This document shows, in pieces, positions 813 to 57,293 of a stretch of 64,000 nucleotides of DNA (position 1 is its first letter; each line of letters begins with the position of its first letter). The position numbers were made by a program, and so were the translations under genes. The notes beneath the pieces were generated by a model that saw only the letters and a list, made by a program, of their open reading frames with translations, was not told the origin of the DNA and did not search any database. The stretch is from an uncultured Hormoscilla sp. (GTDB lineage Bacteria > Cyanobacteriota > Cyanobacteriia > Cyanobacteriales > Desertifilaceae). The stretch lies in assembly GCA_963921275.4 (NCBI GenBank), contig OZ001293.3, forward strand, positions 6,272,001-6,336,000. Reading direction: 5' to 3'.

Positions 813-999
813 TAGGAATAGATAGAGTTTTGTTACCAGTCCATAGTCTGGTAGCTAGAGAACAAGTATTGCATGCGATCGTCCTTTTCTTTACAAGTCC
901 GAGGGAAGGGCGATGGGTGCGATCACAAGTAGTTGATAGCCGGGTGCATCGATGATGCATGTAATATAGCCCGCGCAGGCGGGCTTTGTTCCTGTAGCT

Positions 1000-1870
1000 G
1001 GATGGGGTCGAGCCGGGAATCGCTTCCCGACCCTCCCTTGAGGAACCGGACTTGCGATTTTCACCGCATCCGGCTACTGGGTACTAGGCCCTTTTCATAG
1101 GTAGACTTAATAGGAATTACTTCCGTTAGCCCTTGCCGCCTGTCTTTTCTTCCCTTTCCTGGTTTAGCGAGTGGTTGTTCTGATAACCGTTAGTATCACC
1201 ATTTTCAAGTCAGTTTTACCAGTTATCCATACCTTATCCTCCACTTGCGTTTCGGATTAGTTCCGTGGCTTTTTAGGATTACTCATTCCAGCAGCTTCCT
1301 AGTATCACCGACCCACGTCAGCGCTGGCTACCCAGCATCATCTACATTACTGTAGATGTTATCCCAGGAATTACCCCGGGCATTCGCTTCTTGGGCCATC
1401 CCTCCCCCCGTGGCTTGCGCTTAACATCTAACTTGTCCTGATGGACAGCACACGAGAGGTTACTTCGTTCCCTAACAACATTTCGCGATACCTTTAGGTC
1501 CACACTATACCCCGGGAGCTATTTGAGTACTATATTAGCCAGAGTCTAAAACTAATACTAGCTACCATTTCCTTTTTAGGCCAGCGCATATAGCCTTATT
1601 TCGCTGGTTCCTTATAACGAGGCTTGCACATGTTTGCCTGCTCTAACCTTGGATATCTTTCCTAGCGGCGTCACCGGCTTAGGCTGCCAGTTATCCTACA
1701 TTTGAGTCCTCGCTTAGCACCACGATGATGTCGCTTCGTAGCACCGAGGACCGGTGTCACCCCCGTACCTGGGGGGAGGGGAATTTAACCCCCATGCGGT
1801 CAGAGTTCCCGGCTAATGAAACCGGGCTAGCGTTCCGTGTTTGACCACGTTAGGCTAGAACGAATCGCAC
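1000..1870 (-). mobile_element. ORF-less group IIB-like intron, copy A1 (871 nt), inserted in a REP-like palindromic repeat
   Basis: Minus strand starts GTGCGATTCGTT at 1870. Domain V is GTAGCCGGATGCGGTGAAAATCGCAAGTCCGGTTC, followed by a domain VI hairpin ending GACCCCATCC. Same sequence as copies A2-A4. Confidence 0.93.
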
Positions 1871-1981
1871 GGACCCTTTAGGGTTCGGGCGGCGAGGCCG
1901 AGTAACAACGGGTTGGTTTTGACCACAGGGCGATCGCCATTATAATATTAGCACTGACTGTTATTTCTGTTAAAGATTCTA

Positions 1982-3068
1982 TCACTGCCACTCATCCCTA
2001 ATTTGTTGCTGATACTCCAAAGGATCTTGAGTTAATTTTATCACGCCGGCATATTTACTTATGCTGGATGGGGTCGAGCCGGGAATCGCTTCCCGACCCT
2101 CCCTTGAGGAACCGGACTTGCGATTTTCACCGCATCCGGCTACTGGGTACTAGGCCCTTTTCATAGGTAGACTTAATAGGAATTACTTCCGTTAGCCCTT
2201 GCCGCCTGTCTTTTCTTCCCTTTCCTGGTTTAGCGAGTGGTTGTTCTGATAACCGTTAGTATCACCATTTTCAAGTCAGTTTTACCAGTTATCCATACCT
2301 TATCCTCCACTTGCGTTTCGGATTAGTTCCGTGGCTTTTTAGGATTACTCATTCCAGCAGCTTCCTAGTATCACCGACCCACGTCAGCGCTGGCTACCCA
2401 GCATCATCTACATTACTGTAGATGTTATCCCAGGAATTACCCCGGGCATTCGCTTCTTGGGCCATCCCTCCCCCCGTGGCTTGCGCTTAACATCTAACTT
2501 GTCCTGATGGACAGCACACGAGAGGTTACTTCGTTCCCTAACAACATTTCGCGATACCTTTAGGTCCACACTATACCCCGGGAGCTATTTGAGTACTATA
2601 TTAGCCAGAGTCTAAAACTAATACTAGCTACCATTTCCTTTTTAGGCCAGCGCATATAGCCTTATTTCGCTGGTTCCTTATAACGAGGCTTGCACATGTT
2701 TGCCTGCTCTAACCTTGGATATCTTTCCTAGCGGCGTCACCGGCTTAGGCTGCCAGTTATCCTACATTTGAGTCCTCGCTTAGCACCACGATGATGTCGC
2801 TTCGTAGCACCGAGGACCGGTGTCACCCCCGTACCTGGGGGGAGGGGAATTTAACCCCCATGCGGTCAGAGTTCCCGGCTAATGAAACCGGGCTAGCGTT
2901 CCGTGTTTGACCACGTTAGGCTAGAACGAATCGCACAGACTCCTCTTGTTTAGGTAACTGACATTCTGCCAACAGCTTTTCAATTTTCTGCCAGTCCTGA
3001 TAATCAATCAACACAGCAACTGGACGCATAGCTTCATCGGTGACAATCTTTTTCTTAAAATGTAACAT
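1982..3068 (-). CDS. Small antitoxin-like hypothetical protein (71 aa) split by intron A2; exons 3068-2937 and 2065-1982
   Basis: Removing 2066-2936 gives the uninterrupted frame MLHFKKKIVTDEAMRPVAVLIDYQDWQKIEKLLAECQLPKQEES-SISKYAGVIKLTQDPLEYQQQIRDEWQ*. Confidence 0.8.
2066..2936 (-). mobile_element. ORF-less group II intron, copy A2 (871 nt)
   Basis: GTGCG at 2936; domain V/VI end at 2066; IBS1 GAGTCT is the perfect complement of EBS1 AGACTC. Confidence 0.93.
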
Positions 3069-3210
3069 CACAACCCTCTCGATACTTAAAGGTTAAATTA
3101 TATAATGGCTTCATACCTGGTAATTGTATAGTTAAAAATATGCGATACTTGTTATTAATTATTTTAACCAATTTTAAATTTTAACCAAATAACTTTTAAT
3201 TACTTAACAA

Positions 3211-3456
3211 TCATCGCCAGTCTTTTGCCTCTAATGTTCTCAGGTCTTGCCGAAATTACTCAACACCATAATGAATGGGAATTTTGCGGCTACCTAAAAT
3301 TCTGTGAAACTCTAGTTGATTCCTACCTGCAAATTTGCTTGCTGTACCCAAGGTAATCTTTTCCTGCTGAAAAAGCAGTATGGCAATTTCTAGCTTAAGA
3401 ACGGCTTCAGAGATATGTGCCGCTTGCAGAAACTCATCGGGAATAACCAAACTCAT
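3211..3456 (-). pseudogene. UPF0175-family antitoxin-like protein with an in-frame TAA at 3256-3258
   Basis: MSLVIPDEFL...ITLGTASKFAG...IPIHYGVE*FRQDLRTLEAKDWR*. Confidence 0.75.
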
Positions 3457-3612
3457 TTGTTCAATCTCCTTGTTTACTCAGATCTGACACCTGTTGCAAC
3501 TAGAGGCATATCCTCTCGAATATCATGACCAGGCGATCGCCTAGTAATTCAGTTGCCAAGTTCTCTAATGTCAGCTGGTCTTGCACTCCCCAAGGAATTC
3601 AAAATAACTTGC

Positions 3613-25915: not shown

Positions 25916-27283
25916 CTAGAGCGATCGCCCATAGAGATTAGCCATCAACTGACTGGCAACTCGGTCTAATCTGACGGAATGGGAAGCCTTAAACAAGAGG
26001 CGATCGCCCGGTTGGATCGTCTCTTTCAATCGGTTAATCAAGGACTCGTGAGTGGGAAAGGTTTCTGTAGGTATTCCTGCTGCACCCAGGGCGATCGCCT
26101 CTGCTTGGGGGTCATCCACCAAAACCAGTACGGCATCCAGCATGCAGTTCCGGGCCGTTTCCCCTACTTGCTGGTGAAACTCGGGCGATCGGGTACCCAA
26201 TTCTTTCATGGTTCCCAGGACAGCAATGTGACGCTTTCCGGGGGTTTCTGCTAGCAGATGCAAGGCCGCTTTCATAGATTCTAGCCCGGCATTGTAAGTT
26301 TCATCTAAAATGACAAGATCATTAGGTAACTCGTGGCGCTGGGCGCGTCCTTGAGGTAATGTCACTGACAAACCTTCCGCAAATACCGTCCAGTCAATGT
26401 TCAGCACCTGCGCTACTGCTAATGCTGCCATATAATTAGAAGCATTGTGACGCCCGGGTAAAGGTAAAGGCAACTGCACCCCTGATAATTCTAGGGTATT
26501 TGGATCGATCGGTCGCCCCCGCAAGTCCCCTGATTCTAAACCGTAGGTAAGAGTTTGTCCTTGCCAAACTGTGGCCGCAGTTGACATCAGTCGGCGATCG
26601 TCCTGGTTGAGAATTGCCATGCCAGTCAGGGGCATTTCTGCTAGCAACTCGCACTTGGCACAGGCGATCGCCTCTTCGGAACCAAGCAAACCGATATGGG
26701 CCGTTCCCACATTAGTAATTACCCCCATAGTGGGCCGGGCTATTTCCGTCAACAGGGCAATTTGTCCGACACCGCGCATTGCTATTTCGATCGCAGCAAA
26801 GTTATGCTCTGAAGAGAGTTCTAAAAGTGTTTTTGGAACGCCAATTTCGTTATTAAAATTTGCCTGACTTTTGAGCACTTTCCCCTGAGTTGCTAACACG
26901 GCGGCAATCAATTCCTTAGTGGTAGTTTTGCCCACCGAACCCGTGACCGCAATGATGGGAATGTCAAACTGCTGACGCCACCAACTGGCGATTTGCTGGT
27001 AAGCTACGAGAGTATCTTCTACCACTAGCTGCGGTACGGGTAGGGGCAGGAGTTTGTCCGTGATGGCCCCGATCGCACCCCGGGCGATCGCCTCCGAGAC
27101 AAATTCATGTCCGTCAAACTTTTCTCCCCGCAATGCCAGGAACAACTTACCGGACGAGCGGGTGCGATCTAGGCTCCGGCTATCGGTAGTAATGCCAGTA
27201 ACTAATGGGTTTATTGCCTCATCCTGGAAGTGGTGAGAAACTGCCTTGACAATTTTGGTAATTTGAGATAGGTTAGCGTGCAT
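25916..27283 (-). CDS. murF: UDP-N-acetylmuramoyl-tripeptide--D-Ala-D-Ala ligase
   Basis: TDSR, GEKFDGH, VTGSVGKTTTKE, NNEIGVP, DETYNA, GTMKELG. Confidence 0.96.
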   Translation of the reverse strand: MHANLSQITKIVKAVSHHFQDEAINPLVTGITTDSRSLDRTRSSGKLFLALRGEKFDGHEFVSEAIARGAIGAITDKLLPLPVPQLVVEDTLVAYQQIASWWRQQFDIPIIAVTGSVGKTTTKELIAAVLATQGKVLKSQANFNNEIGVPKTLLELSSEHNFAAIEIAMRGVGQIALLTEIARPTMGVITNVGTAHIGLLGSEEAIACAKCELLAEMPLTGMAILNQDDRRLMSTAATVWQGQTLTYGLESGDLRGRPIDPNTLELSGVQLPLPLPGRHNASNYMAALAVAQVLNIDWTVFAEGLSVTLPQGRAQRHELPNDLVILDETYNAGLESMKAALHLLAETPGKRHIAVLGTMKELGTRSPEFHQQVGETARNCMLDAVLVLVDDPQAEAIALGAAGIPTETFPTHESLINRLKETIQPGDRLLFKASHSVRLDRVASQLMANLYGRSL

Positions 27284-27358
27284 AAATCAGAGGTGCTTAA
27301 TATCTGAAATCTTGACAACACTTTATACTTTGAAAGGGATCTACTTGCGCTTAAGGTC

Positions 27359-27592
27359 GAAGAACCTGTTACTCGTCCCACCAGCGACCCCTGGGAACGC
27401 ACAGGCGATCGCCAACCGGTGGGCTCGCTGTCATATACTGGAGGCAGAGCCTCCCAAGGTTCGTTCCCAGCCCGAGACTGGGAACGAGGTGAAGAACCTG
27501 TTACTCGTTCCCACCGGCGACCCCTGGGAACGCACAGGCGATCGCCAACCGGTGGGCTCGCTGTCATATACTGGAGGCAGAGCCTCCCCAAG
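27359..27592. repeat. Direct duplication of a ~100-bp REP/MITE-like unit
   Basis: 27359-27458 and 27491-27592 are nearly identical. Confidence 0.8.
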
Positions 27593-27742
27593 CCCGCGAC
27601 GGCTGGAGGCTGCGGCCCTCCGGTTCCTTTTTGAGGACATCTTAAGAAATATTAAGATTTGACCCGATCGGGTGGGTGAGTGCTATGGTGAGAAAATATG
27701 TATATTTGCCCGATCGACCTTACCCAGAAAGAGCCAAGAGAA

Positions 27743-29759
<2,017 letters not shown>

Positions 29760-29914
29760 GTGTAATAGGCGATCGGGCCGTTCGTAGTAAGCGCGAAGCG
29801 TGCTTTCGGGGATAGGTTCGTAGTAAGCAGTCTCCGGAGAGCGCTACATGCGCAGCGCGCTGCGCGATCGCACTACTCCGGAGACATCGAAGCGTGCTTC
29901 TCTAGGTTGGGTTT

Positions 29915-30785
29915 GTGCGATTCGTTCTAGCCTAACGTGGTCAAACACGGAACGCTAGCCCGGTTTCATTAGCCGGGAACTCTGACCGCATGGGGGTTAA
30001 ATTCCCCTCCCCCCAGGTACGGGGGTGACACCGGTCCTCGGTGCTACGAAGCGACATCATCGTGGTGCTAAGCGAGGACTCAAATGTAGGATAACTGGCA
30101 GCCTAAGCCGGTGACGCCGCTAGGAAAGATATCCAAGGTTAGAGCAGGCAAACATGTGCAAGCCTCGTTATAAGGAACCAGCGAAATAAGGCTATATGCG
30201 CTGGCCTAAAAAGGAAATGGTAGCTAGTATTAGTTTTAGACTCTGGCTAATATAGTACTCAAATAGCTCCCGGGGTATAGTGTGGACCTAAAGGTATCGC
30301 GAAATGTTGTTAGGGAACGAAGTAACCTCTCGTGTGCTGTCCATCAGGACAAGTTAGATGTTAAGCGCAAGCCACGGGGGGAGGGATGGCCCAAGAAGCG
30401 AATGCCCGGGGTAATTCCTGGGATAACATCTACAGTAATGTAGATGATGCTGGGTAGCCAGCGCTGACGTGGGTCGGTGATACTAGGAAGCTGCTGGAAT
30501 GAGTAATCCTAAAAAGCCACGGAACTAATCCGAAACGCAAGTGGAGGATAAGGTATGGATAACTGGTAAAACTGACTTGAAAATGGTGATACTAACGGTT
30601 ATCAGAACAACCACTCGCTAAACCAGGAAAGGGAAGAAAAGACAGGCGGCAAGGGCTAACGGAAGTAATTCCTATTAAGTCTACCTATGAAAAGGGCCTA
30701 GTACCCAGTAGCCGGATGCGGTGAAAATCGCAAGTCCGGTTCCTCAAGGGAGGGTCGGGAAGCGATTCCCGGCTCGACCCCATCC
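29915..30785 (+). mobile_element. ORF-less group II intron, copy A3 (871 nt), inserted in a REP-like hairpin
   Basis: Empty site TAGGTTGGGTTT|CGTGCCTCAACCCAACCTA matches the uninterrupted repeat at about 37541-37563 on the opposite strand. Confidence 0.93.
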
Positions 30786-30865
30786 CGTGCCTCAACCCAA
30801 CCTACAAATCCCAGGTAAACGGGCGATCGGCCCAAAAAATAATTCCAATTATAGGATAAATACTC

Positions 30866-31361
30866 ATGCCTCGACTTACTTGTTTGTGCGGTGAAAGCAT
30901 CAGTATATAGCGTTTCTCAAATTGATGTGGTATCGCCTAGAAGTCATTGCGAGGGGGGGAGACTAGGGAGTAACTTATGCTTTCATAGAGTTACCCCCCC
31001 GAAGCAATCTCCGATAGCATATCACACTAATCTGAGAACTGCTATATCAGTGGTTCCCAACCCACAAGGATTTAAGCTAATTTGGGAATTAGAGCGCGAA
31101 AGACTGATTGAGGCTCTGCTAGCAGCTTATGCGGATGCCAAATCCTTTCAACATTTTGAAGAACAAGTCTATCAGCTTTTTTATCCGGCAAATCCAGAAT
31201 TTCCTCAAATCTACGAATGTCCCAACTGTGGTAGATTAGCTGTTTTTGTCCGCGCTGCTGACGATAAGCCAGCGTTCTGGTTGAAGCAAGAGCAAAAGTA
31301 TAGCGAGGTAGATTCAAGATCTGCTTTGTTACAGAAAAAACTAGCTACTGCTTATACGTAG
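30866..31361 (+). pseudogene. Cys-rich hypothetical protein (118 aa) interrupted by a MITE
   Basis: MPRLTCLCGESISI + SVVPNPQGFK...YECPNCGRL is in frame after removing 30908-31046. Confidence 0.75.
30908..31044. mobile_element. 137-bp MITE with a TA target duplication
   Basis: Imperfect TIRs TAGCGTTTCTCAAATT / AATCTGAGAACTGCTA, flanked by TA on both sides. Confidence 0.75.
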
Positions 31362-31526
31362 TGCGCGATCGCCCGATCATCGGAGGCACTGGCATTTGGG
31401 CATGGCCTCACCCCGCATAACGCCGGTGGTCGGGAAAGCTTAACGCTGGCCCCCGATGAATCTCAGCGTTGTAAAAATTCACTCGCTGTCAGGTAGTATG
31501 AAACAAGTTCTCAAGAGGCTACGATT

Positions 31527-39507: not shown

Positions 39508-42393
39508 CTACCACCACCGCAGCTGCAAATAACCCCTCGCGGGTTGCTTCAGTTCCTCCTCAGTTAGCCAGTCTACAGGCTTGTAGGTACCAAAGACACG
39601 GTCCCACCAATCAACAGCCAGACCAAAATTATGTTCCCACATGCCGTACTTATGATGCACGTAATGAACGGGCATCGCCATCCAGAAGCACTTGGTCGGG
39701 TGTTAAACTAAGCCAGTACGTCACCGTACCGACTCGTCTTCAAAACCGGACGTGAGATTTTCACCTCATCCGGCTCCTCAATAATGCCATCCTTTACATG
39801 GATACGACAACTACCATCACGGGCAGTTTTTATATCGTGGCAGTGTTTATGCAGTAGTTGGATGTTTTCCCACTGGTCCTTACCACCTAGTGATAGGAGT
39901 TTGATGTGGTCCACTTCCCATTTGTCTTCGTCCCTGAACGTTAATCCGCATTCTTGGCATTTACCCTTTTGTCTTTTGAGCAGTTTGGCCACTCGATTGT
40001 TCAACTCGGGGTTTTTGCCTAGTCTTGTACTCCAATATGTCAAGTCTCCATCGTATGGGCTGGCTGCCCCTTTTACCTTTATGTGCCTTACTACTTCCGT
40101 TCGACTGTGTTGTAGTAGCACTGCTTCTCCTGTCTCAGTTTTGCACCGGAATTGCCATTGTACATCTTGGCCTATCGACCAATACTTTTTGGCTATCCAG
40201 TGTTTTGACTTGTTTGGGTGCCGTCTTTTTGCCCATGTCCATAGAAGCTCCCACAGATATTTGTCCATATCGGAGAAAGTCTCCTTACTTACTACCGTCT
40301 TAAAGTAGTTTGTCCACCCTCGTATGACCGGGTTAAGTTTGCTTATTAAGGCTCCCTGTGGTGCTGCTTTATGACTGGTCACAATTTCTGACAATCTACC
40401 TTTGTGTTCATCTATGGACTCTTTGCTTGGTTTTATTAGGGTTTTGAATCCTAGGGGTTCTCCATGTGGATTTTTGCCTGTGTGGTATTTCCCTACCTCA
40501 TACTGCCTCACATGGAATCCCAGAAAATTAAACCCTGGGTTTTCACCGTTAAGTGTATGAGATGTTTTCGTTTTTTCAGGCTTCAGTTCTAACCCTATTC
40601 CTCCTAACCAATCCGCTACAACCCTCTGCGCTCTTTCTATTGTTTCCCTGTCCTTGTGTATTACTACAAAGTCATCGGCGTATCTAACTACTTTCAGCTC
40701 CTTCCTGTTGTTTCCTGCTATGGACTTTACTTTTTCCTCTAATCCGTGTAAGGCCACATTTGCCAACAGTGGCGATATGACCCCACCTTGAGGAGTTCCG
40801 TAGGGAGTTTCGAGCGTTTTTCCTGCATCTATCACGCGGGCTTTTAGCCATGCGCGTATTTGTCTACGAAAGATAGGCAAGGTATTTAGTTTTGTTAGTA
40901 GCGCTTCGTGGTTGATTTTATCGAAGCATTTAGCAATATCGGCATCTAGTACGTACTTGTCCTTACACCTTATGCTGTTAAATATTGCTCCGATTGCATC
41001 ATGGCACCCTCTACCTGGTCTAAAGCCGTAGGAATTTGGCTCAAAATATGCCTCCCATTCGGGTTCTAAGGCAGATTTCACCAATCCCTGAAGTGCGCGG
41101 TCGTACATAATTGGGATTCCTAGTGGACGTTTTTCGCTCTTGCCCGGTTTAGGTATCCACACTCGTCGCGCGGGCCTTGCCTTGCTTGAGATTTTTAACA
41201 GTCCTACCAATTCGACGCGCTGCTTTGGGGACAACGCCTTTACGCCATCCACACCGGCAGTCTTCTTTCTTTGGTTATCTTGTGTTACCCGTCGTACCGC
41301 TAAACACTTGGCTGACCAGGACTTAACCAGTAATCTTTGGAGCTTGCGGACTGTTCGCCTATCACCACGTTGTGCCGCTCTGTAAATTCGTTTTTGCAGC
41401 TTGTAGACTTTCCGCTCTAGCTTGCGCCAGGGGATGGTCTGCCATTCATACATCGATTTTGACATCGTGCTCATAACGTTTGCACTGCTACTTACAACTT
41501 CACAATTGACATTATCGTGAGGGCGTCAGCGTATCCTGACCATTACAGTCAGGCGTTTGCTTCTCCACTCAATCCTTCCCGGCTATGACCTGCTTTCTGG
41601 AGAGCAGATGTTGCGTCTTTGGTGACTACTCCACCGATCGACCACTGGTGGAGAGTACATAACCGAGTTACTTCGTTCCTACAGATGATTGTTTGTAGTT
41701 TTAGGTGGGTTTTATACGCCGGGTTTTTGGTCAGTGCTTGATGGTCGGACGATAAACCGCCATCGACCTTATCCTTCCCCTTTTGGGGCCGGTGTTTCAG
41801 CCTTATTTCACCGGTTCTACATGACGACGTTTATAAACCTTCTCTTACGATCACCATGACTACTTGCTTGGCGGTAACCGGTGTAGGCTACCAGTCATTG
41901 CGCCGTTCATTCCCGCTTTATGGATTGATGTCATCGTTACCATAGGGAGAGTGCTGTCACTCCTGCACCTGGAGGGGTGGGCTTTCACCACCATCATCTG
42001 TAAGTTGTCAGGGCTAATGTCACCCTGCTAGTGGTCCCCATTAGTGACTTGTGTCACGTTTGTTTACACTAAACGAATCGCACTATTATGTTGTAGCTGA
42101 TGGGCATAGGCGGCAAAGGCGGCAAACACCAGTCCCCCCAGGAACCAACCAATTCCTGCTGCCCAGGAGATGAAGAACATCATACACATTACCACAAAGC
42201 TGCCGACGATGTAATCCCGAAATTCCCAAACCACGCCCTGTCCCTCGTTGCGCCGGTGATGGTCCCGATGGCGTTTGCCAATTTTCGGCGAGACATGCAT
42301 CAGGCGATGCAGCCAATATTCTACTAAACTTCCCAGGATAAAGGATCCTAGGAAACAGATAACTCCTACTCCTATGCTGCTTAAGGCGATCAT
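39508..42393 (-). CDS. Sterol desaturase/fatty acid hydroxylase family protein (167 aa) split by the RT intron; exons 42393-42084 and 39701-39508
   Basis: His boxes EYWLHRLMH and HRDHH; spliced HQLQHN-NPTKCFWMAMPVHYVHHKY...WDRVFGTY. Confidence 0.9.
39702..42083 (-). mobile_element. Full-length group IIB (chloroplast-like class) intron, 2382 nt
   Basis: 5' GTGCGATTCGTT; domain V GAGCCGGATGAGGTGAAAATCTCACGTCCGGTT; 3' end TTAGTTTAAC; removal restores the host frame. Confidence 0.95.
39708..41474 (-). CDS. ltrA: Group II intron reverse transcriptase/maturase with HNH endonuclease
   Basis: TAGVDG, RPLGIP, YGFRPGR, GTPQGGVISPLL, RYADD, X domain GWTNYF, C-terminal CQECG..DH..N..H..CH. Confidence 0.96.
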   Translation of the reverse strand: MSTMSKSMYEWQTIPWRKLERKVYKLQKRIYRAAQRGDRRTVRKLQRLLVKSWSAKCLAVRRVTQDNQRKKTAGVDGVKALSPKQRVELVGLLKISSKARPARRVWIPKPGKSEKRPLGIPIMYDRALQGLVKSALEPEWEAYFEPNSYGFRPGRGCHDAIGAIFNSIRCKDKYVLDADIAKCFDKINHEALLTKLNTLPIFRRQIRAWLKARVIDAGKTLETPYGTPQGGVISPLLANVALHGLEEKVKSIAGNNRKELKVVRYADDFVVIHKDRETIERAQRVVADWLGGIGLELKPEKTKTSHTLNGENPGFNFLGFHVRQYEVGKYHTGKNPHGEPLGFKTLIKPSKESIDEHKGRLSEIVTSHKAAPQGALISKLNPVIRGWTNYFKTVVSKETFSDMDKYLWELLWTWAKRRHPNKSKHWIAKKYWSIGQDVQWQFRCKTETGEAVLLQHSRTEVVRHIKVKGAASPYDGDLTYWSTRLGKNPELNNRVAKLLKRQKGKCQECGLTFRDEDKWEVDHIKLLSLGGKDQWENIQLLHKHCHDIKTARDGSCRIHVKDGIIEEPDEVKISRPVLKTSRYGDVLA

Positions 42394-43423: not shown

Positions 43424-46400
43424 TCAATTAACCACAGTGAAATCATCGACATTAATCAGGGTCGAATCAATCCCCTGCAGGGTGGCCAGGGTTTTCCCTT
43501 CAAAGTTAATCCGGGTATCGAGGCCCATCCTGACGATCGCCAAATCGTCGAAACTCAAACCTCCTGCTAGCCCAATCGAGTCCGTGCCATCTTCAAAGTC
43601 TATAATGGTATAGCCCATGCCCGACTCCAGAACAAAAAGATCGGCCTGCTGAGATCGTCCGTAGAGGCTATCGTTTCCATCTCCGCCGATGAGACCGTCG
43701 TTTCCGTAGACGCGATCGCTTCCATTTCCGCCGGTGAGGGGGTCGTCCTCCTGGAGGCGATCGTCCTGACCGACTATTAGTGAGGCGACCTCCAGAACAT
43801 CGTTGACGTTAATCGTGAAGACCTCCGAGTAACTGGCCCCAGTAACGTCGGTAGTCTGGACGCGGATGCCGTAACTCGATCGGGTCGGGGAACTGTTAAT
43901 TAGCAGTTGGTCCCCTACTATGGTGAAAGCAGCGTTATCATTGTCACCAAAGCCCGAGGTTAACCGGTAGGTAAAGGTATTTCCCCCGTCGGGATCGCTA
44001 GTAGAGAAAGTCCCCACGATTGTACCCTCACGGGAGTTGGAGTTGATGTTGTTGTCGCTAAGGGCTATCTCGGTAGGAGACTCGGCAACATTGTTCACAT
44101 TAATAGTCAAGACCTCCGAGTAACTGGCCCCTGTCTGGTCGGTAGTCTGGACTAATATCCTGTAAATCGACTGAGTCTCAAAGTCCGGGGAACTGTTAAT
44201 TCGCAGTTGGTCCCCTACTATGGTGAAAGCAGCGTTATCATCGCCACCAAAGCCGGAGACTAACCGATAGGTAAAGGTATCTCCCTCGTCGGGATCGCTA
44301 GTTCCGAAAGTCCCCACGACTGCACCCGATGGAGAGTTTTCATTGATGATGCTGCTGCTGAGAACTATATCGGTAGGAGAGGAGTTCTCTGCAACGTCGG
44401 TGACATTAATAGTCAAGGCCTCCGAGTAACTGGCCCCAGTCTGGTCGGTAGTCTGGACGCGGATGCTGTAACTCGACTGAGTCTCAAAGTCAGGGGAACT
44501 GTTAATTCGCAGTTGGTTCCCTACTATGGTGAAGGCGGCGTTATCATCGTCACCAACGCCTGAGACTAACTCGTAGGTAAAGGTATCTCCAGAGTTGGGG
44601 TCAGTAGTGGATAAAATCCCCACAACAGTATTGGCTGGGGAGTTTTCATTGATATTGATGCTGCCGCTGAGTTCGATGTCGGTAGGAGATTCGGCAACAT
44701 CGTTGACGTTAATAGTCAAGACCTCCTCGTAACTGGCCCCAGTCTGGTCGGTAGTCCGGACGCCGATGTTGTAACTCGACTGGGTCTCAAAGTCCAAAGA
44801 ACTGTTAGTTAGCAGTTCGTCCCCTACTATGATGAAGGCGTTGCTGCCGGAGAGTAACTGGTAGGTAAAGCTATCTCCAATGTCCGCGTCGGTAGTGGAG
44901 AAAGTCCCCACGACTGCACCCAATGGGGAGTTTTCATCAATGCTGCTGTTGCTGAGAACTATGTCAGTAGGAGAGGAGTTCTCAGCAACATCGTTGACGT
45001 TAATAGTCAAGGCCTCCGAGTAACTGGCCCCAGTAGCGTCGGTAGTCTGGACGCCGATCCTGTAACTCGACTGAGTCTCAAAGTCCAAAGAACTGTTAAT
45101 TCGCAGTTGGTCCCCTACTATGGTGAAGGCGGCGTTATCATCGTCACCAACGCCTGAGACTAACTGGTAGGTAAAGGTATCTCCAGAGTTGGGGTCAGTA
45201 GTGGAGAAAGTCCCCACGACTGCACCCAATGGGGAGTTTTCATCAATACTGCTGCTGCTGAGTTCGATGTCGGTAGGAGATTCGGCAACATCATTAACCT
45301 CAATAATCAAGACCCTCGAGAAACTGTCCCCAGCAGAGTCGGTAGTCTGGACGAGGATGCTGTAACTCGACTGGGTCTCAAAGTCCGGGGAACTGTTAAT
45401 CAGCAGTCGGTTTCCTTCTATGGTGAAGGCGTCGTTATCATCGGGACCAACGTCGGAGATTAACTGGTAGCTAAAGGTATCTCCCTCGTCGGGGTCGGTA
45501 GTCGAGAAAGTCCCCACGACTGTATCCGATGGGGAGTTTTCATTGATGCTGCTGTTGCTGAGAACTATGTCAGTAGGAGAGGAGTTCTCTGCAACATCGG
45601 TGACGTTAATAGTCAAGACCTCCGAGTAACTGGCCCCAGCAGCGTCGGTAGTCCGGACGAATATCTCGTAACTCGACTGAGTCTCAAAGTCCAAAGAACT
45701 GTTAGTTCGCAGTTCGTCCCCTACTATGGTGAAGGCGTTGCTGCCGAAGAGTAACTGGTAGGTAAAGCTATCTCCAATGTCGGCGTCGGTAGTGGAGAAA
45801 GTCCCCACGACTGCACCCAATGGGGAGTTTTCATTGATGCTGCTGTTGCTGAGAACTAGGTCGGTGGGAGTAGAGTTCCCTACAACATTAATGCTAAAGG
45901 TATCTGTCCCTTCACCTAGATCTTCGTCTATGGCGGTTACCGTTACGGTAAAGTTGCCTGCGGTAGTAGGGATACCGCTGATAACTCCCCGACTGTTGAT
46001 GGTTAAGCCCTCTGGTAAACCGATAGCTGTGTAGTTGTTGATGTTACCATTGTTGATGTTACCATTGATGTCGCCGAAGTTGTCGCTAATGTCTTCGTTG
46101 AAGTTATTCCCTGACAAGAGATCAAAGTCAAAGTCGGGAATCTCGGTTCTTACATAAGGGGGGTTTTCCAATAGCTTGTTAGCCCGCAAATTTAGAACCT
46201 CTTGGGGGATGGTGCCAGTTAGTCGGTTGTCGAACAGCCAGAGCTCTTCCAAATTGGAAAAATTTCCTAACTGAGGAGGGATGGAACCAGTCAGTCGGTT
46301 GTTGAACAGCCAGAGCTCTTCCAAATTGGAAAGATTCCCTAACTGAGGAGGGATGGTGCCAGTCAGGTCGTTGTTGAACAGCCAGAGAGCTACCAAATTG

Positions 46401-47833
46401 GAAAGATTTCCTAACTGAGGAGGGATGGTGCCAGTTAGTCGGTTGTTGTCCAGGTGGAGATCCTCCAAATTGGAAAGATTTCCTAACTGAGGAGGGATGG
46501 TGCCAGTTAGTCGGTTGTTGTCCAGGTCGAGCTCTTCCAAATTGGAAAGATTCCCTAACTGAGGAGGGATGGTGCCAGTCAGTCGGTTGTTGTCCAGGTC
46601 GAGATCGTCCAAATTGGAAAGATTCCCTAACTCACTCGGGATGCTGCCAGTCAGTCGGTTGTTGTCCAGGTCGAGCTCTTCCAAATTGGAAAGATTTCCT
46701 AACTGAGGAGGGATGGTGCCAGTCAGGTCGTTGTTGTCCAGGTCGAGCTCTTCCAAATTGGAAAGATTCCCTAACTGAGGAGGGATGGTGCCAGTCAGGC
46801 CGTTTTCCTCCAGCTCAATTACCGTCACCCTGCCGTTCTCTACCGTTACCCCAAACCAATCGTTAAGATCATTAGGGGGAGTTGGGCTGCTGAAATCCCA
46901 GCCTTCATTGTTCTGCCAAGAATCCCCATTTGTGGCGTCGTATAGGGCCCTCAGTGCCTGATAGTCGCTAAGAAGGGGGTTAACAAGGGGGTTGTTGCCG
47001 GACAGGTCGAGCTGTTCCAAATTCAGATTATCTAACTCCTGAGAGATGCTGCTACTCACACTCAGGTTGTTGTTGGACAGGTCGAGAGCTTCCAAATTGG
47101 AAAGATCCCCTAATTCCGTCGGGATGGTGCCACTCAGTTGGTTGTTGGACAGGTTGAGCTCTTCCAAATTGGAAAGATTCCCTAACTGAGGAGGGATGGT
47201 GCCAGTCAGGTCGTTCGACTGCAGGTTGAGCTCTACCAAATTGGAAAGATTCCCTAACTGAGGAGGGATGGTGCCAGTCAGGCCGTTTTCCTCCAGATCG
47301 AGTACCGTCACCCTGACTCTATCTAGATCCACCCCAAACCAATTATCAACAACAGACTCATCGGGGGGAGTGTCACTGTTGAAATTCCAGTCCTCCCAGC
47401 CTGTATTGTCATCCCAAGATGTCCCACCCGTGCCTTGGTATAGAGACCTTAAGGCCTCATAATCCTGCTGATTGAGGGGGGCCAGCTTAGCCATCAACTC
47501 CTCTCTTGCATCTCCGGCGGCCACGTTACAGCCGTAGAGTAGGAGTTTTTTGATTTTCCACCCCCGCAGGGTAGAGGCGTAATCCCCTAGGGTATCTAAA
47601 CTCAGTTGGGAGTTCCCCAGATACAGACAGCCAGGGCTGCCGTGGGAGAGTAGGTGAAGAACCTCTGTTTCCCGATGCTGTAGGAGTTGTTCGCCGATCT
47701 GTTCGATGCCATCGGACTGAAGGTCTAAGAGGAAGGGTTTGGTTCCAGGCTGGAGGCCGTCTATAAGCTGCTGGTAGTTTTCTAAAGAGGGATCCACTAC
47801 TACCATGGTGAAGGCATTGGTATTATTCTTCAT
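43424..47833 (-). CDS. Large secreted/surface protein: DUF4347, plant-type LRRs, Ig-like domain, about 7 cadherin-like repeats, RTX-type tail
   Basis: HLLSHGSPG..LLYGCNVA; LxxLxLxNNxLTGTIPPQLG repeats; FSTTD..DFET repeats; GGDGND.L.G tail. Confidence 0.9.
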   Translation of the reverse strand: MKNNTNAFTMVVVDPSLENYQQLIDGLQPGTKPFLLDLQSDGIEQIGEQLLQHRETEVLHLLSHGSPGCLYLGNSQLSLDTLGDYASTLRGWKIKKLLLYGCNVAAGDAREELMAKLAPLNQQDYEALRSLYQGTGGTSWDDNTGWEDWNFNSDTPPDESVVDNWFGVDLDRVRVTVLDLEENGLTGTIPPQLGNLSNLVELNLQSNDLTGTIPPQLGNLSNLEELNLSNNQLSGTIPTELGDLSNLEALDLSNNNLSVSSSISQELDNLNLEQLDLSGNNPLVNPLLSDYQALRALYDATNGDSWQNNEGWDFSSPTPPNDLNDWFGVTVENGRVTVIELEENGLTGTIPPQLGNLSNLEELDLDNNDLTGTIPPQLGNLSNLEELDLDNNRLTGSIPSELGNLSNLDDLDLDNNRLTGTIPPQLGNLSNLEELDLDNNRLTGTIPPQLGNLSNLEDLHLDNNRLTGTIPPQLGNLSNLVALWLFNNDLTGTIPPQLGNLSNLEELWLFNNRLTGSIPPQLGNFSNLEELWLFDNRLTGTIPQEVLNLRANKLLENPPYVRTEIPDFDFDLLSGNNFNEDISDNFGDINGNINNGNINNYTAIGLPEGLTINSRGVISGIPTTAGNFTVTVTAIDEDLGEGTDTFSINVVGNSTPTDLVLSNSSINENSPLGAVVGTFSTTDADIGDSFTYQLLFGSNAFTIVGDELRTNSSLDFETQSSYEIFVRTTDAAGASYSEVLTINVTDVAENSSPTDIVLSNSSINENSPSDTVVGTFSTTDPDEGDTFSYQLISDVGPDDNDAFTIEGNRLLINSSPDFETQSSYSILVQTTDSAGDSFSRVLIIEVNDVAESPTDIELSSSSIDENSPLGAVVGTFSTTDPNSGDTFTYQLVSGVGDDDNAAFTIVGDQLRINSSLDFETQSSYRIGVQTTDATGASYSEALTINVNDVAENSSPTDIVLSNSSIDENSPLGAVVGTFSTTDADIGDSFTYQLLSGSNAFIIVGDELLTNSSLDFETQSSYNIGVRTTDQTGASYEEVLTINVNDVAESPTDIELSGSININENSPANTVVGILSTTDPNSGDTFTYELVSGVGDDDNAAFTIVGNQLRINSSPDFETQSSYSIRVQTTDQTGASYSEALTINVTDVAENSSPTDIVLSSSIINENSPSGAVVGTFGTSDPDEGDTFTYRLVSGFGGDDNAAFTIVGDQLRINSSPDFETQSIYRILVQTTDQTGASYSEVLTINVNNVAESPTEIALSDNNINSNSREGTIVGTFSTSDPDGGNTFTYRLTSGFGDNDNAAFTIVGDQLLINSSPTRSSYGIRVQTTDVTGASYSEVFTINVNDVLEVASLIVGQDDRLQEDDPLTGGNGSDRVYGNDGLIGGDGNDSLYGRSQQADLFVLESGMGYTIIDFEDGTDSIGLAGGLSFDDLAIVRMGLDTRINFEGKTLATLQGIDSTLINVDDFTVVN

Positions 47834-48139
47834 TTTAAGGTTGCTGAATTTTGAATGGCTTAGGAACGAGTCGCTCCCTTATATATGTATACTTCAGATG
47901 GGGTTCGGGATATTTCGGATAATTTCAAAAATTATTTGCTGTGTTATCGGTTAGAGAAAAAATAGATGAACCGAGGAGAGGGAAACGATGCCTACCGTTC
48001 CGGAAAAATCGGGAGTATGGCCAAAACCCTGTCGCAGAGAGAAAATGCGCATTTTTTCGATGACCGGTGGTAAAAAATCAATGATTTACTACCGGTGATA
48101 GACGGCCATGTAGGAGGAACGGCCAAAAATAAATTGACT

Positions 48140-48317
48140 CTTCGGCGTTGGGTAGTGAAGGGTCGGGGTTGGGTAGTGAAGGGTCGGGGTTGGGTAGTGA
48201 AGGGTCGGGGTTGGGTAGTGAAGGGTCGGGGTTGGGTAGTGAAGGGTCGGGGTTGGGTAGTGAAGGGTCGGGGTTGGGTAGTGAAGGGTCGGCGTTGGGT
48301 AGTCTAGGGTCGGCGTT
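48140..48317. repeat. About 8 tandem 21-bp repeats GTTGGGTAGTGAAGGGTCGG(G/C)
   Basis: Direct tandem units with no spacers. Confidence 0.9.
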
Positions 48318-48916
48318 AGATCTCCACCCCTGCGCGTTGAGTGGCGACCCGTGCCCGTTGTCGCTCCACCTGGGTTGGGTTAAGCTTGCACTCCTGCGCG
48401 TTAAGCTTGCACCTAGGCGCGTTGAGTAGTGACCTATGGGCAGACCATAGTGACCCGTGCGCGTTAAGCACAACTCCACCGCATTAAGCACAACGAGCAA
48501 TCTTTCCCCTAAACGGAACCAAGATCCTAGGGAACGACCAGTGAAGTGCCCTGCCGCTCGGGCGACAGGGTCTCTCGCGCTCACTTGTAGTTGATAGCCA
48601 GGTGCATTGATGATGTCCTCCCTATTGGGATAAGCTGTCGCGCATTAAATTGCATAGTTTGAAGAAATAATTTTGAATTGCTTAAGACCGATATCGTCGT
48701 AGTTTACAAGATATCTGGCAGCTTAACACCCAAGACTAAGACCTGTCAAGTCCGATCACCTCCGATCGGACTACATTTTCGTTAATTTTCTATGAAAATT
48801 TTATCGATTGACATTTCAAACATAATCAGATATAAGATGGTTACTGAGACCTTGGTCGCGGTGACTCTGACCGCGCAGCGTGGCGCTAGCCATTATTTGA
48901 CTACTCCGGAGAGAGA

Positions 48917-55110: not shown

Positions 55111-57293
55111 ACTGTCTGCCAAAAGATTCTGGCAAAACAGCCAAAATGCTTTTTGCTGTAGCATTACCTAGTTCTTTGGGCTCCAGTTTGTGAAGCCCGC
55201 CCCCATATACTCGACCCTCACCTGCCAATATTTCTGGGGATATCTCCTGGAGAGCTTGCCACACAACTTTGACAAGCTGCCGATTTATGTTGAGGATTTT
55301 CTCCAGGTTTGGTTTTGGGTAAAGCATCAGATACACATTGGCTGCTGTCGCCCGACTGTGATTCAATATAAATCGGAATGTGAGACCAGTTTTTTGGCCT
55401 TTACGCCCCATATAAGTACAAAGGAACCTAGAAGCAGGACGGTTCTCTTGTAAGTACCAAGGACATCTATGTCTGCACAAATACCGCTGACTATATCCGG
55501 CTTTTACACCTAAAATAAGGTAATTCCAAAGTGCTGGATACTTAGATTTTACCTCCGCTTCTGGCAAATGGCATGCTAGCAAAAATAGTTGCCGATCGAC
55601 CAGGGGATTCCCAGCCAGATCTGCTGCTATCTCCTCTACTGAGAGGTATCGGGGACTGGGTAAAATTGGTTTCAAGAATTCCTCTGGCAGTTGATAGCGA
55701 TCGATCTGTTCTGGGGTGAGGATAAAGAACTGATTTGCCCCGGTTGCTGGATGGGGTCGAGCCGGGAATCGCTTCCCGACCCTCCCTTGAGGAACCGGAC
55801 TTGCGATTTTCACCGCATCCGGCTACTGGGTACTAGGCCCTTTTCATAGGTAGACTTAATAGGAATTACTTCCGTTAGCCCTTGCCGCCTGTCTTTTCTT
55901 CCCTTTCCTGGTTTAGCGAGTGGTTGTTCTGATAACCGTTAGTATCACCATTTTCAAGTCAGTTTTACCAGTTATCCATACCTTATCCTCCACTTGCGTT
56001 TCGGATTAGTTCCGTGGCTTTTTAGGATTACTCATTCCAGCAGCTTCCTAGTATCACCGACCCACGTCAGCGCTGGCTACCCAGCATCATCTACATTACT
56101 GTAGATGTTATCCCAGGAATTACCCCGGGCATTCGCTTCTTGGGCCATCCCTCCCCCCGTGGCTTGCGCTTAACATCTAACTTGTCCTGATGGACAGCAC
56201 ACGAGAGGTTACTTCGTTCCCTAACAACATTTCGCGATACCTTTAGGTCCACACTATACCCCGGGAGCTATTTGAGTACTATATTAGCCAGAGTCTAAAA
56301 CTAATACTAGCTACCATTTCCTTTTTAGGCCAGCGCATATAGCCTTATTTCGCTGGTTCCTTATAACGAGGCTTGCACATGTTTGCCTGCTCTAACCTTG
56401 GATATCTTTCCTAGCGGCGTCACCGGCTTAGGCTGCCAGTTATCCTACATTTGAGTCCTCGCTTAGCACCACGATGATGTCGCTTCGTAGCACCGAGGAC
56501 CGGTGTCACCCCCGTACCTGGGGGGAGGGGAATTTAACCCCCATGCGGTCAGAGTTCCCGGCTAATGAAACCGGGCTAGCGTTCCGTGTTTGACCACGTT
56601 AGGCTAGAACGAATCGCACAAACCCCGCTTGATTGTGAATAGGTCGGATAACTTGAGGGACATGTCATCGCGACTAAATAAATATTCCTCGATCTGTTTT
56701 CCGTAATTTACATCCATAAACTCACTATGAATCAGCCATCCAGCAATAGCATTTTCAGCCATCCAGGCATCTGCTTTGCAGAGAAAATAGCAGTACATCC
56801 CCGCTAATTGACTAAGTTTTATTCCCACTGTTTGATAGGTAATGTTTTGCAGTCGCTGCTTCTCAGTATTGGTCAAATGGTGATGTCTGACATAGGGAGG
56901 ATTGGCAATGATTAGGTTAAATTTTGTGGCGTCAGAACTTGGCGGCGTGGCACGGGTAAAATCGTCAATTTTTAGCTTTAATGGCCTATCTTGCCAAAAC
57001 TCAGACGCTTGCAACCCATAGTCTGGAGAAATTTCATAGCCAACCGCCTCAGCAATCTGTGAAGAAGGAAATGTTTTTAGTAAAGCAGAGTAGAATGAGC
57101 CAGTACCAAAAGCAGGATCCAGAAAGCGAATGTCTCCTGGCAACAGTGCTTTGGCGTATTCTAGCATATCTGTTGCTAGGGCCGTCGGTGTCGCAAATTG
57201 ACCGAGTTTGTTTCTTGAGTGGCGTGTTTTCCTGGAGTCAAGTTCTGCTTGAAGCTGGAGGCGCCTCAATTCAATATTGTTTATTTCTACCAT
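55109..57293 (-). CDS. N6-adenine DNA methyltransferase (Eco57I/gamma-type, 437 aa) split by intron A4; exons 57293-56620 and 55748-55109
   Basis: GQFATP, LDPAFGTG, NPPY; the spliced junction gives IKRG-LATGANQFF. Confidence 0.85.
55749..56619 (-). mobile_element. ORF-less group II intron, copy A4 (871 nt)
   Basis: Same sequence as A1-A3; IBS1 GGGTTT. Confidence 0.93.

Follow-up and report, generated by a model that had tools for sequence, protein, structure and literature searches.

3' Ends of ORF-less Group IIB Introns in a Hormoscilla Genome: DNA Boundaries after CC or CU and the Splice Site They Point to

Introduction

Group II introns are recognized by the rule GUGYG...AY, and the altered 3' splice sites treated in the accessible part of a review are only shifts of 50-70 nt of the B.c.I4 type (PMC4424553). 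At the locus studied here a short intron beginning with GTGCG continues for two bases beyond an AT that looks like such a canonical end. Where does this element stop, and where is it spliced? The window, i.e. the whole 64-kb stretch of DNA that was analysed, belongs to a genome of 7.03 Mb, and the closest named protein homologues of the host cyanobacterium come from Hormoscilla assemblies (86-87% identity). A first-pass annotation of the window had claimed a non-canonical 3' splice site, after ATCC in one intron family (A) and after GACT in another (B). From the analyses described below we conclude that these ORF-less group IIB introns end in CC or CU and are very probably spliced there, with an end that would be set by the branch adenosine, the gamma-gamma' pair and the EBS3-IBS3 pair. 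A literature search on group II introns of Hormoscilla and of sponge symbionts yielded no paper on these introns.

Results and Discussion

Group II Introns of the Window and of the Genome

Six group II domain V/VI matches were found in the window with Rfam, of which 4 belong to family A, 1 to family B and 1 to an intron with a reverse transcriptase (RT) (Table 1). The RF00029 model scored 44.4 bits for A and 47 bits for B at a gathering score of 40. The best of the Rfam D1-D4 models, group-II-D1D4-2, stayed below its threshold (22 bits versus 36), and thus no assignment to IIB1 or IIB2 was made. The elements of the two families are ORF-less group IIB introns of 835-871 nt, without a long ORF and without an RT or maturase of their own in domain IV. 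The review mentioned above calls ORF-less introns rare in bacteria (PMC4424553). The 4 window copies of family A were 100% identical to one another, while family B was 73-76% similar to family A.

Both families have gone through a burst in this genome, and both end in CY. Using BLAST, 139 full-length copies of family A (134 at 100% and 5 at 99% identity) and 72 copies of family B at >=99% identity were counted, the latter with a query that was one base too long. A fuzzy search for domain V detected 434 sites in the genome. The domain VI type studied here (GCTCGACCCC plus four bases) was present at 363 of them, and about 60 were of the RT type, ending in ...GGCTTAGTTTAAT/C. All 55 clusters formed at 96% identity start with GTGCG. 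Tandem pairs, a tandem triple and self-nested copies of family A were seen in the genome beside the 134 identical ones; the family A element was found inserted into itself at position 768.

Table 1. Coordinates of introns, intron parts and exons in the window.
Feature	Position	Strand	Basis
Family A copy A3, ORF-less, 871 nt, GTGCG...CCCCATCC, inside REP-like hairpin; start GTGCG at 29915, end ...GCTCGACCCCATCC at 30785	29915-30785	+	
Family A copy A1, within dispersed repeat	1000-1870	-	
Family A copy A2, interrupts small RelB-like antitoxin gene (ES/SISKY)	2066-2936	-	
Family A copy A4, interrupts Eco57I-type DNA methylase gene (KRG-L-ATG)	55749-56619	-	
Family B, ORF-less, 835 nt, GTGCG...CCCCGACT, splits DUF697/YcjF-type GTPase gene; start GTGCG at 27819, end ...GCTCGACCCCGACT at 28653	27819-28653	+	
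RT-bearing group II intron, canonical ...TTTAAC end; comparison and possible helper	39702-42083	-	
Domain V of A3	30709-30742	+	Rfam RF00029 match 30707-30783
Domain VI helix of A3	30748-30780	+	RNAalifold, 55 cluster representatives
3' tail CATCC of A3; C30784 next-to-last (C not A), C30785 last (gamma')	30781-30785	+	
J2/3 of A3, GGA; gamma = G30384, partner C30785	30384-30386	+	Alignment and covariation
J2/3 of B, AGA; gamma A28287, last base T28653	28287-28289		
Predicted EBS3 of A3 (T; intron position 364)	30278	+	Covariation with +1
Predicted EBS1 of A3 (AGACTC), versus IBS1 consensus GAGTCT at -6..-1	30238-30243	+	Flank logos, inferred
Predicted EBS2 of A3 (AAGGTT), versus IBS2 consensus AACCTT at -15..-10	30135-30140	+	Flank logos, inferred
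Exon 1 of family B host gene	27743-27818		
Exon 2 of family B host gene, encodes DUF697/YcjF-type GTPase	28654-29759		

Boundaries of the Mobile Units

Toward the 3' end, the 4 family A copies of the window remain identical up to 30785 and no further; toward the 5' end, their identity extends to 4-6 nt before GTGCG. The 3' half of domain VI of A3 and its junction read ...GGCTCGACCCCATCC followed by CGTGCC. ATCC was present in 138 of 138 full-length A copies examined, with differing flanks. Upstream, these flanks share an IBS2-like AACCTT at -15..-10 and an IBS1-like GAGTCT at -6..-1, with each position conserved at about 55-85% (75-85% for the IBS1 positions). Downstream, information was found at the first base only, which is A in 96 of the 138 copies. 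Counted over distinct sites, +1 is A at 87 of 120 for ATCC, 58 of 74 for GACT and 35 of 44 for GACC ends, and is the sole informative position of the 3' exon. In tandem A copies ...CCCCATCC is joined to GTGCGATT, i.e. ATCC directly to GTGCG, and in 4 elements the 5' end of another intron follows immediately.

For an empty-site test both flanks were joined, the genome was searched with the product by BLAST, and the 3' cut was slid from -3 to +3 around the proposed end; ungapped matches down to 92% identity were allowed and tandem copies left out. For shifts of -3, -2, -1, 0, +1, +2 and +3 the numbers of fits were 0, 0, 1, 46, 1, 0 and 0 for the 138 ATCC copies; 0, 0, 0, 30, 4, 1 and 0 for the 89 GACT copies; 0, 0, 1, 16, 0, 0 and 0 for the 47 GACC copies; and 0, 0, 0, 4, 0, 0 and 0 for the 21 TAAT copies. 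The matches at shift 0 represent 30, 19, 13 and 4 distinct sites, respectively. The REP hairpin that surrounds A3, which the first-pass annotation had expected to be restored by a cut after ATCC, does occur uninterrupted elsewhere in the genome with zero extra bases (...ggttgggttt[]cgtgcctcaaccc). Contigs of four sequencing runs were inspected for positions 27000-31500 and consisted of fragmented repeat contigs without an intron-less allele of the locus. Loose contig ends at 29914, 28654 and 30785 run into the flanks of other copies, which fits the boundaries and is not independent of them. The boundary after ATCC in family A and after GACT in family B is thus seen directly in the DNA, and the pattern of the evidence is far beyond chance.

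Interrupted Host Genes

The split GTPase gene of family B allowed a comparison with intron-less orthologues. The best relative, P0002 (396 aa, 88% identical), begins METYDDLIETIIESYQKAQAEIGQCNILIIGKTG, and remoter GTPase orthologues read GQC or GKC, then N, then I/V-L; the pattern of P0002 and others is GQC-N-I/V-L-I/V-IGKTG. Exon 1 ends with ...EIGQC plus one base (A27818), and exon 2 provides AT and then ILIIGKT from 28656. These codon remainders, set against the intron-less orthologues, show that exactly 27819-28653 would have to be removed. The cut after GACT hence restores GQC-N-ILIIGKT as had been proposed, and P0002 and the other orthologues agree in lacking the extra base.

The three interrupted reading frames behaved accordingly. 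Across the junctions of A2, A4 and B they stayed open at the proposed cut and at cuts displaced from it by multiples of three, but at no other. With the proposed cut the frames covered 42+367 aa for B, 225+212 aa for the methylase of A4 and 52+27 aa for the antitoxin of A2; at the canonical AC (B) or AT (A4, A2) they shrank to 42+19, 29+68 and 4+27 aa. Both halves of the earlier claim, that canonical cuts break these frames and that cutting after ATCC repairs the antitoxin and the methylase, were borne out. Exon 1 of A4 matches PF07669 and its exon 2 matches the C-terminal domain PF22837, weakly; exon 1 of A2 matches PF18506, a RelB-like antitoxin family (E 3.7e-07). Just upstream of the GTPase gene two direct repeats of 80 nt (27376-27455 and 27509-27588, 99% identical) carry GCGATCGC.

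3' Ends across the Whole Set of Elements

The last two bases of the 363 elements were CC in 206, CT (CU in RNA) in 108, AT (AU) in 41, TC in 4, AC in 2 and others in 2 cases. The next-to-last base is C in 314 of 363, and most elements fail the AY rule. Members ending in TAAT carry the textbook AU at the same aligned place at which the others carry CC or CU. The position of the end is constant, and the departure lies in the next-to-last base. The claim of a non-canonical 3' end held for the boundary after ATCC and GACT, with the refinement that the splice position is unshifted within the family. Only two features depart from the IIB rules: the next-to-last base is C instead of A, and the tail exceeds that of the RT introns of the same genome by one base.

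The AU, CU and CC ends share a single aligned position and are found on backbones that are close in other respects. A tree of 51 cluster representatives was built from the sequences with the last four bases omitted. On it the next-to-last position changed about 7 times between A and C, and at least 4 of the changes are required by branches with good support. A mutual-information scan for the next-to-last base returned the base at -4 and the last base of J5/6 as weak associates, and no pairing rule. The bases at -4 and -2 were observed to change together, being T..A in TAAT and G..C or A..C in the others, with TACT (2 copies) as the sole intermediate tail seen; an exchange of 3' ends by recombination is a possible origin of this co-change. 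The last base of J5/6 is C solely in TAAT clusters (8 of 8).

The Gamma-Gamma' Pair

The J2/3 triplets GGA in family A and AGA in family B had been assigned in the first pass from an alignment and read as a compensatory gamma-gamma' pair. An alignment of 195 distinct full elements confirmed this reading: position 470 of family A (30384) is G when the intron ends in C and A when it ends in T. Among 51 clusters 27 G-C pairs, 24 A-U pairs and 0 mispairs were counted; 4 of the 55 clusters (96% identity) were dropped, 3 for deletions at this place and 1 for misalignment. An unbiased scan of all columns against the last base ranked the gamma column first after the last base's own column (mutual information 0.95). 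On the tree the pair switched about 5 times (4-5 in bootstraps), of which well-supported branches force only 1; the backbone is weakly supported. In the intron P.li.LSUI2 gamma is A420 and J2/3 includes A422 (PMC6224600), and the gamma-G-A layout just before domain III found here matches that arrangement.

EBS3 and Domain VI

All columns were likewise scanned against the first base after the proposed end, using 302 distinct element/site rows. Position 364 (30278) was singled out, with T-A in 209, T-G in 33, A-T in 27 and G-C in 8 rows, and is Watson-Crick paired with +1 in 244 of 302 rows. In the 42 rows in which the predicted EBS3 is not T, 35 pair at +1, 5 at +2 and 9 at +3. The last intron base is matched as well in 29 of these 42 rows; this confounds the comparison, since both positions are occupied by T in the TAAT families. 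In A3 itself the EBS3 T faces a C at +1, a mismatch. This copy lies in a non-coding hairpin and may no longer splice. The TAAT-ended families mostly have A at the predicted EBS3, before T (12 of 23 sites), and the CY-ended families have T, before A. The guide base for the 3' exon has thus been retargeted between families.

The consensus fold of domain VI (RNAalifold, 55 representatives) showed compensatory changes in the upper helix and an internal loop with A30751 opposite the unpaired G30776-A30777. In this model the branch adenosine is predicted to be A30777, at a distance of 8 nt from the last base. The corresponding distance in the RT intron, from the bulged A39709 to C39702, is 7 nt, in line with the earlier counts of -9 and -8 for the two bulged bases. 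Domain VI is followed in these introns by 5 unpaired bases only, with no extra domain of about 50-70 nt as in the B.c.I4 type.

The RT-bearing Intron and the Search for an Autonomous Member

The RT intron of the window encodes an ORF of 588 aa with RVT_N, RVT_1, GIIM and HNH domains. At 39708-39800 (minus strand) the frame of this intron-encoded protein (IEP) was seen to continue through domain V and to stop inside domain VI at a TAG whose A is the bulged branch base A39709. Among 46 elements of the domain VI type studied here that have no nearby 5' end, no clear RT-bearing member was found in a check limited to the longest sense ORF (up to 964 aa) within 3 kb upstream of each element. Two of these ORFs, of 609 aa, adjoin RT-type introns and look like nested introns.

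Distribution in Other Genomes

The exact domain V/VI pattern was present in 5 of 301 genomes searched of the order, namely the genome itself, 3 of 4 congeners and one genome of another family. The ends in the pattern-bearing genomes were mostly GACC, in addition to TAAC, GTCC, TACC, AACC and AGCC. The sole match outside the genus (L061; G052:C1:3886400-3890400) is an intron of about 2 kb (~1567-3562) ending in GACC. It carries two ORFs of 172 and 195 aa, TnpB/IS605-like by eye, at the usual place of an IEP.

Alternative Readings of the 3' End

In one alternative reading the introns end at AT or AC, and CC or T are conserved target bases of the 3' exon on which the intron or a helper protein depends. 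Textbooks give AY as the end (PMC4424553), and the Rfam covariance model places its terminal 'Au' at AU 30782-30783 in A and at AC 28651-28652 in B, 2 bases and 1 base short of the proposed ends. This reading is refuted at the DNA level: no empty site fits the AT cut (shift -2, 0 of 138 A copies) or the AC cut (shift -1, 0 of 89 GACT copies), the orthologues of the B host leave no room for an extra base, and the host frames break at these cuts. Moreover, the CC is invariant while true target positions vary, and EBS3 would face an invariant C. As an account of the splice site it is very improbable. It is next to impossible, in our judgement, that the additional one or two bases derive from a shifted 5' boundary or were added at integration instead of belonging to the 3' site of the ribozyme. 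The frames alone would permit this, as they fix the removed length and not which end is shifted. However, the bases before GTGCG vary and match EBS1 (-1 is T in 117 and -2 is C in 107 of 138 A copies), the supposedly added bases do not vary inside a family and change together with J2/3 from one family to another, and tandem units join ATCC to GTGCG without any base in between.

A further reading accepts the boundary and takes the copies as no longer splicing, either dead or spread as DNA, with the CY end as a tolerated defect and the host genes as pseudogenes. Many copies do sit in repeats and intergenic DNA, and in RmInt1 of Sinorhizobium meliloti a CC end accompanies imperfect 3' fidelity in vitro (PMC4238363). 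Against this stand the 134 identical copies at sites matching EBS1, EBS2 and EBS3, which argue for very recent reverse splicing of RNA with exactly these ends. The gamma-gamma' pair was kept in all 51 clusters through changes on both sides, and in A2, A4 and B the interrupted reading frame is still intact. We regard non-functional copies as quite improbable and favour splicing after CC or CU.

Proposed Splicing and Mobility

We infer the splice junction and the branch point from DNA. In the proposed mechanism the mobile unit, which ends with CC (A) or CU (B) four bases beyond the conserved GACCCC in domain VI, would be cut at that end. The 3' splice site would be fixed by the branch A 8 nt upstream, by a Watson-Crick pair between the last base and the first J2/3 base (G-C in A, A-U in B), and by the single EBS3-IBS3 base pair, which involves the first base of the 3' exon; these are the ordinary IIB rules. 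The moving unit here is GTGCG...CY, found at sites that conform to EBS1, EBS2 and EBS3. Since a group II intron spreads when its excised RNA reverse-splices into a new site, the RNA of these elements must bear the same ends, which implies that the forward cut falls behind CC or CU. Insertion by this route would also explain why every copy brings its CC or CU along. The elements have no ORF, and maturase and RT activity would most likely be supplied in trans by the IEPs of the roughly 60 resident RT-type introns, as in Thermosynechococcus (PMC2882425).

The next-to-last C may form a Watson-Crick pair with G1. A more extended version appears unlikely to us. It would have the next-to-last C, together with the A before it, form Watson-Crick pairs with G1/U2 instead of the non-canonical G1-A contact. 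In this version the trait would have arisen independently of RmInt1, would flip with AU in one family and would favour runaway helper-dependent proliferation. In ai5gamma the next-to-last A contacts G1 (Chanfreau and Jacquier, 1993, cited in PMC4238363).

Relation to Known Introns

A CC end with a G-C gamma pair has already been published for RmInt1, a IIB3 intron of class D that is highly mobile in its host genome (PMC4238363). With this precedent the departure described here is real but modest. The CC end and the G-C pair are shared with RmInt1 by family A and by the GACC families. RmInt1 differs in having its own IEP, without an endonuclease domain, whereas the elements here are ORF-less and the tested resident IEP has an HNH domain. 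In contrast to RmInt1, the present lineage also shows CU (108 of 363) and AU (41 of 363) at the same aligned position. It is a second case beside RmInt1, ORF-less, cyanobacterial and with CU ends too; the next-to-last pyrimidine of RmInt1 is thus not unique. Any change of the next-to-last C of RmInt1 impairs the second splicing step (PMC4238363).

The TeI3/TeI4 introns of Thermosynechococcus elongatus are likewise ORF-less cyanobacterial IIB elements that multiplied in one genome (PMC2882425). The ORF-less TeI3 introns depend for their mobility on IEPs that related introns, the TeI4 helpers, provide in trans (Mohr et al., 2010; PMC2882425). The copy number is far higher here, with 363 elements, and the accessible part of that paper does not mention a non-AY end for TeI3. 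Introns of the B.c.I4 type from the Bacillus cereus group also splice downstream of an AY at the foot of domain VI, but through a shift of 53-56 nt that comes from an extra 3' domain (PMC1865049; PMC2691827). In the elements studied here the end lies 1-2 nt past the look-alike AY, without extra structure and at a position constant in the family. In ai5gamma and P.li.LSUI2, as here, the J2/3 triplet begins with gamma, whose partner is the last intron base, while EBS3 is paired to the base that opens the 3' exon (PMC6224600). AGA...U in family B is the usual A-U form of canonical IIB introns; the difference from these is their next-to-last A, in place of the C that predominates here.

Annotation by rule or by Rfam sets the 3' end of these introns 1-2 nt too early in several hundred copies of the genome, and with such an end every interrupted gene would be frameshifted. 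The series of AU, CU and CC ends offers natural material on the role of the next-to-last nucleotide in the second splicing step and in reverse splicing, which has so far been studied with mutants of ai5gamma and RmInt1.

Further Repeats in the Window

A match to the Rfam model CRISPR-DR28 (967-990, minus strand; 36.6 bits versus a gathering score of 35) adjoins the 3' end of A1. The sequence around it (ccgaaccctaaagggtcc followed by ggctacac...aaagcc) belongs to a dispersed repeat, of which more than 25 copies are scattered singly and form no array; a look-alike is therefore the probable explanation of the match. Long tandem repeats were observed at 43782-47354 and 48121-48351, with periods of 300 nt and 72 nt, together with a 21-nt repeat run (GGGTCGGGGTTGGGTAGTGAA); they are probably a repetitive gene and a simple array.
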